From the NCBI RefSeq assembly GCF_011045215.1, contig NZ_CP049201.1: DNA of 64,000 bases; one strand, given 5' to 3'. The notes under the pieces are model-generated. The model did not search any database and was not told where the DNA came from. It saw nothing but the letters and a program-made list of their open reading frames with translations. Source of the stretch: Escherichia coli (GTDB lineage Bacteria; Pseudomonadota; Gammaproteobacteria; Enterobacterales; Enterobacteriaceae). The position numbers were made by a program, and so were the translations under genes. Of the stretch, positions 19,872-56,758 are shown in pieces. Within the stretch, counting starts at the first letter, position 1. Every line of letters starts with the position of its first letter.

Positions 19872-20204
19872 CGTAAAGATACATGCTCATCCGGATCATT
19901 TCAACACCCAATCCCTGTGACCCTTTGTGGATGTGGAATTTCCGCAACGGGGAACTCTGGCATTGTTAGCAGCCGTTGGCGACGCTCCCATAAACGCCTG
20001 GATGAGTGATTGATGATGGTTTTGCTGAGAGTATGGATTTTTCGAGAATGGAGGTTATCTCCACTTTACTGGCCGATGATTTATCGCAGTATGATTGATT
20101 ACCTGACAGCGTGTATTCCTCTCCCACGGATATAATAATTACTTACAAAAAGGGAGAGGATGCATATTTTAAATATCACTGAAGTGAACAGTTTATTGCC
20201 GTTA

Positions 20205-20306
20205 TTAATAGAAATGGAGAAATAAATAGGCGTATTCTACAATTGCGACAAAAACAACGATATTAATCAGTTTATGACTGATTTGTTGTACTTTATTCTC
20301 TTTCAT
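20205..20306 (-). CDS. ykgR: small hydrophobic protein YkgR
   Basis: Minus-strand ORF translates exactly to MKENKVQQISHKLINIVVFVAIVEYAYLFLHFY (33 aa), which I recognise as YkgR. Confidence 0.7.
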   Translation of the reverse strand: MKENKVQQISHKLINIVVFVAIVEYAYLFLHFY

Positions 20307-21922: not shown

Positions 21923-22156
21923 AACAATACCTCAAATGTTTATCTGATTTTGATGCGTATGTTTTAACTGGTTAGTTGTTGCCAGCTTTGGAACCAAGAG
22001 TTCTGGCTTTATTTATAATCCCTTTAAAGGGTTTCTAATAATTGAGTTGCTGCTTTTTTGTTTTTTAATGAAATTTCTTTTTGAGTAATTTTATTATTGT
22101 TGTGTAGTCAATAAAGGATAAATGTCAGGGAGATAAGGAATCTCCCTGTAAAATTA

Positions 22157-41195: not shown

Positions 41196-41864
41196 TTACT
41201 GCCCAGAGTTTTGTTGGTATTCATCTACCATTTTTTTGACAAGGCAAAACATTACAGAAATTACAATGCTTATAAAAAATCCCAGAGCTAGGTAAATGGC
41301 AGCAGGGTATTTATTTTTTATTTCTGGTGAGCTTATAGTTACACAGCCATCACCGTTTGGATACAATGACCAGTTCCTGGTCAGGTATATCATTTTTGTA
41401 TAAAGCTCACTGTTAATTGCTGAAGGCGTTTGTATCTCATCGAGAACTTGCCTGCCATTATGGTATTCTGACGCATACCATTTGATAATAGACGCCTGCA
41501 CGTGAGATATTTCCGCTTCAGCAGTTGGTAAATCTCTCTTATCTCCTGACCATTCCAGCTTTATTTCTCTGTTCTTGACATCTGGGCTGGTGTGAAAAAA
41601 TGTAGTAATTCGCTGAATAACATCTTCAGTCATTGTGGTCTGACAGGCAAAGTTATTATTGCTATCACAGTTAACAAGTATACCTGGCGTTGTCTGGTTT
41701 ATTTTTAGGCTGTAAATCACTTTTATATTGTCTTTATTGATATACAGAAACAACAGCACCATAGCCATACATATAGCCATAATAAAAAGGATAACACGAA
41801 TCTTTTTCTTCAGATAAAATAAAATCTCAATCAGATCGATATCCTGTTTGATTTGTTCACTCAT
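41196..41864 (-). CDS. ykgH: inner membrane protein YkgH
   Basis: 222 aa, one N-proximal transmembrane segment followed by a periplasmic domain; position between ykgG and betA. Confidence 0.75.
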   Translation of the reverse strand: MSEQIKQDIDLIEILFYLKKKIRVILFIMAICMAMVLLFLYINKDNIKVIYSLKINQTTPGILVNCDSNNNFACQTTMTEDVIQRITTFFHTSPDVKNREIKLEWSGDKRDLPTAEAEISHVQASIIKWYASEYHNGRQVLDEIQTPSAINSELYTKMIYLTRNWSLYPNGDGCVTISSPEIKNKYPAAIYLALGFFISIVISVMFCLVKKMVDEYQQNSGQ

Positions 41865-42057
41865 AATATATCCAGAAAATAAAATCTGCCGCAGATAAAT
41901 GAATTAATAGTCTGTATCAGGAATGTTCGGGTTAAATATCAGCAAAAAGCCAGCATCATGAATACTGGATATGAAGCATGAGAGTTACCTCAGTGTTTAT
42001 ATAAGGATTCGGCCCCCCTCTCTGGAACGGTAACTCTCAATCTGATCGGTTCCTGCG

Positions 42058-43746
42058 TTAGTTCACATCACGACTCATTTTTTTCGCTCTCACCGGCATC
42101 CCATTTGCCACAAAATATCCCGCCGTGCTCCTCGGCAACGCTTCCTGTCCACGAATCATGTCCGCTATTTTCTCGCCAATCATAATTGTCGTGGCGTTCA
42201 AATTCCCGGTGATAATCTGCGGCATAATTGACGCATCCACCACGCGCAGGCCTTCCAGCCCATGCACGCGGCCTTCGCCGTCAACCACGGACATCTCGTC
42301 GTAGCCCATTTTGCAGGTACCGCACGGATGGAAGGCGGTTTCGGCGTGATTACGCACGAACTCATCGAGCTGCTCATCCGTCTGACATTCCGTGCCGGGG
42401 CTGATTTCGCGGCCACGATACTGATCCAGCGCTGGTTGATGCATGATCTCGCGGGTGATGCGAATTGCGTCGCGGAACTCCTGCCAGTCCTGCTCGTGCG
42501 ACATGTAGTTAAACAGAATCGCCGGATGCTGGTGCGGGTCGCGGGATTTAATCCGCACATGCCCACGGCTTGGCGAGCGCATCGATCCGACGTGGCACTG
42601 GAAGCCGTGCTCTTTCACTGCATTCGAGCCGTTATAGTTAATCGCTACTGGCAGGAAATGGTACTGAATATTCGGCCACGCAAATTCCTCTCGGCTGCGA
42701 ATAAATCCGCCTGCTTCAAAGTGGTTGCTGGCACCAACGCCGGTGCCGCCAAACAGCCACTCCGCACCGATTTTCGGCTGATTCCACCACTGCAGGGCAG
42801 GGTAGAGGGAAACCGGTTCTTTGCACTCATATTGCAGATACATCTCCAGGTGATCCTGAAGATTTTCGCCGACGCCGGGTAAATCATGCACCAGCGGAAT
42901 ATCAAACTCCGCCAGCAGTTCAGCGCTACCCACGCCGGAACGTTGCAGGATCTGCGGAGAGGCGATCGCACCTGCACATAACAGCACCTCTTTATTCGCT
43001 GTCGCGCGGGTTGGAATGGTGCTGTCGCCTTCCTGCCACTCGACGCCCACCGCGCGTTTGCCGTCAAAAATGATGTGATCGGTCATAGCGTGAGTACGAA
43101 TGGTCAGGTTAGGGCGCGATTTGGCCTGATCGAGATAACCGCGCGCGGTACTGGCGCGACGGCCCTGCGGCGTGACGGTGCGATCCATCGGGCCAAAACC
43201 TTCCTGCTGATAGCCGTTGAGATCGTCCGTGCGCGGGTAGCCTGCCTGCACGCCCGCTTCAATCATCGCTTCAAACAGCGGATTGACGCCGGGTTTGGAG
43301 GTGGTGACGCTCACCGGGCCATCACCGCCGTGATAGTCGTTATCACCAATATCGCGCGTCTCGGCCTTGCGATAGTAGGGCAGGCAATCGAGATAGCTCC
43401 AGTTCTCCAGGCCGGGTTCTTTCGCCCAGTTGTCGAGATCCAGCGCGTTGCCACGGATGTAGCACATGCCGTTGATCAGCGACGATCCACCCAGGCCTTT
43501 ACCGCGTCCGCACTCCATGCGGCGGTTATTCATAAACGGTTCAGGTTCCGTTTCATAGGCCCAGTTGTAGCGTTTACCCTGTAGCGGGAATGCCAGGGCA
43601 GCGGGCATCTGGGTGCGGAAGTCAAAGCGATAGTCCGGGCCGCCCGCTTCAAGCAGCAGCACGGAGGTATTCGGATCTTCAGTCAGACGGGTAGCGAGAA
43701 CGTTGCCGGCTGAGCCGGCACCAATAATGATGTAGTCAAATTGCAA
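42058..43746 (-). CDS. betA: choline dehydrogenase (GMC oxidoreductase)
   Basis: GMC flavoprotein; start assigned to TTG at 43744-43746 ([15 protein letters not shown]…) with GGAGG 5 nt upstream, because the ORF-track ATG start lies inside betB. The C-terminus runs 6 codons (MSRDVN) past …VRAKK. Confidence 0.85.
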
Positions 43747-43759
43747 ATAAACCTCCTGG

Positions 43760-45232
43760 TTAGAATATGGACTGAAATTTAGCCATCTCAACCTGGATGG
43801 ACTTCACCTGGGTGTAACTCTGGAGCGTCATCACGCCGTTCTCGCGACCAATGCCGGAGTGTTTGTAGCCGCCAACGGGCATCTCTGCCGGGGATTCGCC
43901 CCAGGTGTTGATCCAGCAAATACCCGCTTCCAGCTGATGAATGACGCGATGCGCGCGGTTCAGGTCCGCCGTCACGATGCCCGCCGCCAGGCCGTAGTCG
44001 GTATCGTTAGCGCGGCGAATGACTTCGTCTTCCGACTCGTAGGTCAGAATGGACATCACTGGCCCGAAGATCTCTTCACGCACGATGGTCATATCGTCGC
44101 TGCAATCGGTGAACACTGTCGGTGCAACCCATGCGCCGTTATCGAAGCCATCGCCTTTCAGTACATCGCCGCCGCACAGTACGCGCGCGCCTTCCTCTTT
44201 GCCTTTGGCGATATAGCGCAGCACGTTATCGCGATGCGGGAAGCTGACCAGCGGGCCGAAGTTAGTTTGCGGATCGAAAACGTCGCCCGCGCGAATGCGC
44301 TCAACGCGCGCCAGAATTTTCTGCTCAAATGCGGCTTTGCATTTCGCCGGAACGAAGACGCGGGTGCCATTGGTACACACCTGACCGGAGCTGAAGAAGT
44401 TTGCCATCATGGCGATATCGGCGGCGAGATCGAGATCCGCATCATCGAAAACGATCAGCGGTGATTTACCGCCCAGTTCCATGGTCACTTCTTTCAGGGA
44501 AGAGGCCGCCGAGTTAGCCATCACTTTTTTGCCGCTGGCGACACCGCCGGTAAATGACACTTTGGCAATGCCCGGATGCTCGGTCAGATATTGCCCGGTC
44601 TCCGCGCCCACGCCCGGCAACACGTTAAATACGCCGTCCGGCAGGCCCGCTTCGCTGTAAATTTCAGCCAGCTTTAACGCGGTAAGCGGGGTGACTTCGC
44701 TCGGTTTGAAAATCATTGCGTTGCCTGCCGCCAGCGCCGGGGCGGATTTCCACAGGGCAATCTGGATCGGGTAGTTCCATGCGCCAATCCCCGCCACCAC
44801 GCCCAGCGGTTCGCGGCGGGTATAAACAAATGACGTCTCACGCAACGGGATCTGGCTGCCTTCCAGCGCCGGGATCAGCCCGGCGTAGTACTCCAGCACG
44901 TCCGCACCGGTAACGATATCGACGGTTGAGGTTTCCGAATATGCTTTTCCGGTATCGAGGGTTTCCAGTTTTGCGAGTTCGTCATTGCGTTCACGTAGAA
45001 TATCAACGGCCCGACGCAGAATACGCGAGCGTTCCATAGCGGTCATCGCCGCCCAGATTTTTTGCCCCTGTTGGGCACTCTTCACGGCGCGATCGACATC
45101 CTCGCGCCCGGCGGCCTGCACGGTCGCCAGCACGTTACCGTTGGCCGGGTTAATGGTCTCGAAGGTGCGACCGCTGGTGGCGGAGGTATAACCACCATGT
45201 ATATAAAGCTGCTGTTCTGCCATTCGGGACAT
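43760..45232 (-). CDS. betB: betaine aldehyde dehydrogenase
   Basis: 490 aa aldehyde dehydrogenase ([15 protein letters not shown]…), immediately upstream of betA. Confidence 0.9.
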
Positions 45233-45245
45233 CACGTCTCCTCGG

Positions 45246-56255: not shown

Positions 56256-56709
56256 TGCCGGATGCGGCGTGAACGCCTTATCCGGCCTACAAGTGGCGCA
56301 AGAATTTGTAGGCCTGATAAGCGTAGCGCATCAGGCATTTGTCACCATTGCCTGATGCGGCGTGAACGCCTTATCCGGCCTACGAGTGGCGCGAGAATTT
56401 GTAGGCCTGATAAGCGTAGCGCATCAGGCATTTGTCACCATTGCCGGATGCGGCGTGAACGCCTTATCCGGCCTACGAGTGGCACGAGAATTTGTAGGCC
56501 TGATAAGCGTAGCGCATCAGGCATTTGTCACCATTGCCGGATGCGGCGTGAACGCCTTATCCGGCCTACGAGTGGCACGAGAATTTGTAGGCCTGATAAG
56601 CGTAGCGCATCAGGCATTTGTCACCATTGCCGGATGCGGCGTGAACGCCTTATCCGGCCTACGAGTGGCACGAGAATTTGTAGGCCTGATAAGCGTAGCG
56701 CATCAGGCA
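56256..56709. repeat. tandem REP (BIME-type) array, about 5 units of about 93 bp
   Basis: Repeating unit TGCCGGATGCGGCGTGAACGCCTTATCCGGCCTAC-spacer-TAGGCCTGATAAGCGTAGCGCATCAGGCA-TTTGTCACCAT, with unit starts at about 56256, 56349, 56442, 56536 and 56628; fills the yahG-yahI gap. Confidence 0.85.
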
Positions 56710-56758
56710 ATTTGGCGTTGGTCACAACCCCATCATCCTCTGTAGCGGACATAACAAA

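Follow-up and report, generated by a model that had tools for sequence, protein, structure and literature searches.

A run of six or seven adenines at the 3′ end of Escherichia coli betA, probably an ordinary heritable length polymorphism

The betA gene for choline dehydrogenase in a 64,000-nt stretch of Escherichia coli DNA (contig NZ_CP049201.1; hereafter the window) encodes a protein of 562 residues, six more than the enzyme of K-12, and the six additional codons begin at the last base of a run of seven identical bases. This raises the question of whether the longer reading frame is a genuine allele, one state of a switch operated by slippage within the run, or an error of sequencing or assembly, all of which had been put forward in a first-pass annotation of the same DNA. 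The features of the gene on which the answer depends are the following.

42058..43746, minus strand: betA coding sequence (choline dehydrogenase), 562 codons plus TAA, TTG start; from the ORF list, TIGR01810 and Pfam
43744..43757, minus strand: betA translation start, with AGGAGG at 43757-43752, a 5-nt spacer and TTG at 43746-43744; from gene-sense reading
42078..42084, minus strand: homopolymer, T7 on the plus strand and A7 in gene sense; polymorphic site with six or seven nucleotides
42061..42078, minus strand: six extra codons ATG AGT CGT GAT GTG AAC (MSRDVN), translated only in the 7-A allele
42058..42060, minus strand: TAA stop of the window's 7-A allele
42075..42077, minus strand: TGA closing the 6-A (K-12 type) allele, out of frame in the window
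42068..42070, minus strand: third-frame TGA, which would end a 5-A (...AKNES*) or an 8-A (...AKKNES*) allele; from direct reading
41950..41968, minus strand: putative intrinsic-terminator-like hairpin with a T-rich tail, from a consensus match

The gene occupies the minus-strand frame 42058-43791 of a program-made ORF list, and translation from the TTG at 43746-43744 gives the 562-residue product. The betB stop codon lies upstream of the start at 43762-43760 (betB ORF 43760-45235), and in strain PapM-32-1 the PGAP annotation selects the same TTG, with a coding sequence of 1689 nt. At the other end of the gene, the window reads A-TTTTTTT-C at 42077-42085, and the run length was established from this direct reading together with alignments with 26 other loci, which confirms the seven T and the 562-residue product described previously. 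The run spans the codons of Lys555 and Lys556 and the A of the following ATG; with one T fewer, the frame would run into the TGA at 42077-42075 and the protein would end in ...RAKK* after 556 residues, as had been proposed. The length given there for K-12 BetA is likewise right: the K-12 coding sequence has 1671 nt, and translation of its 3′ end closes with ...RAKK* at 556 residues. The frame does continue six codons past this point, but what the first-pass annotation called the expected C-terminus is simply that of the K-12 allele.

All three frames are closed within 20 nt, by the TGA at 42077-42075, the TGA at 42070-42068 and the TAA at 42060-42058, and any slip of ±1 would therefore merely exchange one short tail for another. 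The terminator-like hairpin at 41968-41950 is situated some 90 nt past the end of betA, beyond every alternative stop. Between the two lies an 11-bp inverted repeat with a long loop (41980-42038; GAGAGTTACCG ... CGGTAACTCTC in gene sense), whose stems are conserved across haplotypes; its fold was not clearly better than that of shuffled sequence (z = -1.57). A 7-nt A/T run is by itself nothing unusual in the window, where 12 A7/T7 runs occur and one of T8.

The protein is a member of the BetA family, scoring 1031.8 bits against the TIGR01810 equivalog model with a cut-off of 732.1, and it contains both the GMC_oxred_N (PF00732, residues 3-300) and the GMC_oxred_C (PF05199, residues 393-524) domains. 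The betB, betI and betT reading frames adjoin betA in the order betI-betB-betA with a divergent betT, and the syntenic PapM-32-1 locus carries the same bet operon annotation; both the enzyme and its operon are of the standard bet type. The GMC_oxred_C match ends at residue 524 and that to TIGR01810 at residue 537, while the adenine run falls in codons 555-556 and lies 18-31 residues beyond the point where these models of the conserved enzyme stop. Because stops are present in all three frames and the run lies beyond these models, either allele leaves the conserved domains intact: both encode residues 1-556 in full, and with them the whole of the catalytic domains as the Pfam and TIGR models delimit them. 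In orthologues the tails are different, ending in ...MPVKRSFA* or ...KRSRA* with no A run in Pseudocitrobacter and in ...PVRGKSL in the PDB entry 9lq0. These tails indicate only that the E. coli BetA tail is not conserved among orthologues. The 9lq0 entry was considered as a structure of E. coli BetA and rejected, being a homologue with a tail of its own.

The seven-T allele is found in a wide range of strains. Intact 1689-nt genes are annotated in O157:H7 Sakai (ECs_0357, NP_308384.1, 562 residues ending in MSRDLN), in the O121 strains WL1277, EC20017429 and 2011C-4251 (WP_001159103.1), and in TUM18530, CM2, D10, 806883-9-2019, DLL557, the mouse isolate 8178 and PapM-32-1. The 3′ ends of all annotated 7-T genes translate to ...RAKKMSRD(V/L)N*, with MSRDVN in the window, O121-type, B2-like and D10 alleles and MSRDLN in Sakai, TUM18530 and PapM-32-1. 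Reference proteins ending in MSRDVN had been named in advance as evidence against reading the six codons as an extension beyond the reference C-terminus, and such proteins exist, WP_001159103.1 and several others among them; the sharing of the run by other strains, which the first-pass annotation proposed to check, is seen in Sakai, O121, PapM-32-1 and several more.

The frequency of the allele was estimated among 5,426 complete E. coli genomes, of which about 5,100 carry betA. Queries of 75-78 nt with an identity band of at least 99% were used, and 28-mers were avoided, as a low-complexity filter would probably mask the 7-T run. In evenly spaced samples of the hit rows, seven T were found in 12/60, 10/60, 10/59, 4/30 and 6/30. 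This places the allele in about 17-20% of the complete genomes with the gene, or about one in six, an estimate that compares the record span with the query span, assumes no other indel in the alignment and mirrors the bias of the complete-genome collection, in which O157:H7 is over-represented. Exact matches to a shared flank of 76/77 nt number 3266 records with six T and 49 with seven, and most 7-T genomes have additional SNPs in the flank, for example those of the O157:H7 type (307 exact records). The window accordingly bears a minority allele, yet a common one. The only complete genome with a betA at least 99% identical to that of the window is the O157:H7 strain TR01 (H232, NZ_CP033605.1), at 99.2% and with a span consistent with seven T; a typical O157:H7 betA is about 96% identical, which makes the TR01 gene an atypical allele for its label.

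The difference thus appears to be an ordinary heritable length polymorphism of the betA 3′ end, arising by rare slippage, near-neutral and recurrent, and we put the probability of this reading at roughly 0.93. The last two lysine codons lie within the A6/A7 run and gain or loss of one base shifts the stop, A6 giving ...RAKK* (556 residues, K-12 type) and A7 giving ...RAKKMSRD(V/L)N* (562 residues, window and O157:H7). The cause is likely rare replication slippage and, judging from the position of the run, the change in length is probably neutral or nearly so. On this reading the alleles are inherited stably within clones, and across backgrounds both have arisen repeatedly during the diversification of E. 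coli; short-tract recombination could account for part of the apparent recurrence. The first-pass annotation had listed a real strain polymorphism among its options, and this is borne out both by the intact 1689-nt genes in many RefSeq genomes, some 17-20% of the complete genomes, and by independent assemblies that carry seven T on the window's own haplotype.

The recurrence is apparent from an ungapped block of 320 nt, which takes in 270 nt upstream and 50 nt downstream of the run and varies at 56 sites among 27 sequences. The window, with seven T, differs in this block at two positions from 120899 and at two from GCA_014332375, both of which have six; TUM18530 (7 T) and HH45 (6 T) are also two differences apart, and the O121-type (7 T) and K-12 (6 T) sequences three, all downstream of the gene. 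On a local neighbour-joining tree of the 27 sequences, Fitch parsimony requires at least six changes of run length. Since both alleles occur on near-identical flanks, rare replication slippage would have recurred over evolutionary time. An earlier neighbour-joining tree built on 270-nt flanks was discarded, because the loss of downstream homology in island-bearing loci distorted it. A protein that matches the window's BetA over all 556 residues and ends in ...AKK (P0001) comes from a lineage with a different downstream island. In the 6-A lineages with the same 556 residues (L021-L026, position 6777 onward), homology is lost at window position ~41970, beside the hairpin, and the island, which replaces ykgH-ykgGFE, carries a phage-type integrase, a GerE/LuxR-type regulator and an autotransporter.

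Regarding the ancestral state, the E. coli genes that diverge most were taken in place of an outgroup: no betA match within the collection falls below 94.4% identity, and the sampled rows at that extreme have six T, which is suggestive only. A scan of species-representative contigs for outgroups with the degenerate pattern Y-[FY]-VANGMPV returned no Escherichia representative, the matches being two Pseudocitrobacter species and one unrelated contig. The pattern fits the window's own betA, and the Escherichia representatives either lack exact coding for the peptide or are absent from the collection.

Several other features of the window and its relatives were observed alongside betA. The neighbouring ykgH is intact in the window (41196-41864, 222 residues), and in the O121-type strains EC20017429, WL1277 and 2011C-4251 (L001 1-140, L002 1-140 and L012 1-101) its orthologue is annotated as a pseudogene interrupted by a stop codon. 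At 56256-56714 a 93-nt unit is repeated in tandem 4.9 times with 98% matching, and the unit includes a REP/BIME-like palindromic sequence (GCCGGATGCGGCG...CTTATCCGGCCTAC); the annotation of PapM-32-1 places a hypothetical protein on the equivalent array (L016 49182-49658), probably an over-call. A segment of 117 nt at 840-956 is 91% identical to one near ykgR in PapM-32-1 (L016 13058-13174; approximately window 20157-20273), suggestive of a short dispersed repeat.

Among the alternatives, the one that fares best, although we regard it as very improbable, assigns a function to the difference. The 556- and 562-residue forms of this membrane-associated flavoenzyme would differ in stability, membrane association, turnover or activity under selection, or else the A7 allele would yield both isoforms by low-level +1 slippage, either ribosomal or transcriptional; recurrent switching between six and seven would then represent a slow adaptive toggle of osmoprotection capacity, for example in O157:H7 lineages. 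The tail MSRDVN or MSRDLN is indeed nearly invariant even between distant haplotypes, and successful clones such as O157:H7 are fixed for the allele, but 6-T genomes conserve these 18 nt just as well without translating them, and the conservation therefore does not speak for selection acting on the peptide. The tail furthermore lies beyond all conserved models, orthologue tails vary freely, and a search of the literature found neither support for a functional difference nor functional data on the two isoforms. As for slippage, direct reading shows that a +1 shift on AAA-AAA-A in the A7 allele meets TGA at once; the sequence would, however, do no more than permit such re-pairing, and a run of seven is shorter than the runs known for efficient slippage.

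A sequencing or assembly error, with a true run of six T and a miscalled seventh, has next to nothing left in its favour. Indel miscalls classically fall in homopolymers, and among the complete genomes none matches the 121-nt haplotype of the window with seven T exactly. However, the window's exact 562-residue protein is present in the public protein collection (P0002, choline dehydrogenase [Escherichia coli]) on 18 contigs from independent samples, and four independent samples, represented by two NCBI and two Logan assemblies (L017-L020), have an identical A7, TAA and local haplotype, so that the allele is not private to one assembly. Against the window, these four show 2, 41, 52 and 31 substitutions over 8-12 kb and are therefore distinct strains that belong to one allele family. 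Among complete genomes, the closest is PapM-32-1, which is 99.18% identical to window positions 7100-56900 over one 49.8-kb alignment block and likewise has seven T. All seven indels between the two fall in intergenic DNA and none inside any CDS, and over the 49.8 kb no other frame-breaking homopolymer indel was found; with seven T in the closest genome and every indel intergenic, sequencing error is therefore excluded for practical purposes. The indels themselves (18603, 37680, 38059, 19931, 22036, 33064 and 41900) are ordinary intergenic length polymorphisms, three of them being A, T or G homopolymers that differ in length by one base, and the one at 22036 a 9-nt duplication-type change (TAATAATCT).

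The idea of a phase-variable or contingency locus, in which frequent slippage would toggle BetA between two states within a population, draws on the position of the homopolymer within a reading frame and on the occurrence of both lengths on near-identical haplotypes, hence recurrent mutation, but it is scarcely credible given that the O157:H7-specific haplotype (…CGCTCTTACTGG…) has 307 exact records with seven T and 0 with six, that about 4,950 records with the consensus flank include no exact 5-T or 8-T allele, and that a complete conserved enzyme is encoded by both alleles, which leaves no on/off switch. The tract does not vary within this clone, and its length only adds or takes away six C-terminal residues, which does not switch the product on or off. 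Homopolymers of typical phase-variable loci are also longer than 7 nt.

Taken as an ordinary length polymorphism, the difference carries little biological weight and its value is mainly practical. The 562-residue BetA is a legitimate allele and should not be flagged as frameshifted, misassembled or pseudogenic, nor should the K-12 length be treated as the one expected BetA C-terminus. The locus provides a small, clean example of a frameshift-tolerant gene end at which a homopolymer indel has recurred without cost over evolutionary time. Its stability within clones makes the allele a possible minor lineage marker; it is fixed, for instance, in O157:H7.

At the database level the 562-residue allele is already known from several WP_ accessions and from the O157:H7 Sakai reference, while a search of the literature found no paper on a tail-length polymorphism of betA; the sole match for E. 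coli reports a betA G9D substitution, unrelated to the tail site. The RefSeq proteins of this length (NP_308384.1, WP_001159103.1, WP_001159135.1, WP_022645244.1, WP_021556525.1, WP_023141610.1, WP_001159121.1 and WP_164476705.1) share with the window the 7-A run, the 1689-nt CDS, the TTG-start model and the MSRD(V/L)N tail. Their flank haplotypes differ, as the downstream flank of the window resembles that of K-12 and has TAA at 42058..42060, where Sakai, O121 and the majority of B2-like alleles carry TGA; the BetA of PapM-32-1 departs from that of the window at 6 residues. The K-12 protein (WP_001159094.1, 556 residues, which we take to be UniProt P17444) is the product of the same gene in the same operon, with a near-identical downstream flank that includes the TAA triplet, and the difference from the window is that the K-12 gene has six A, with TGA read straight after ...RAKK. 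With contingency loci and other slipped-strand indels, the betA run has in common a one-base change in a mononucleotide run inside an open reading frame, recurring on independent backgrounds. It differs from contingency loci in having no on/off effect, no heterogeneity within a clone and two tract lengths only, and in these respects behaves as a slow, near-neutral polymorphism and not as a switch.
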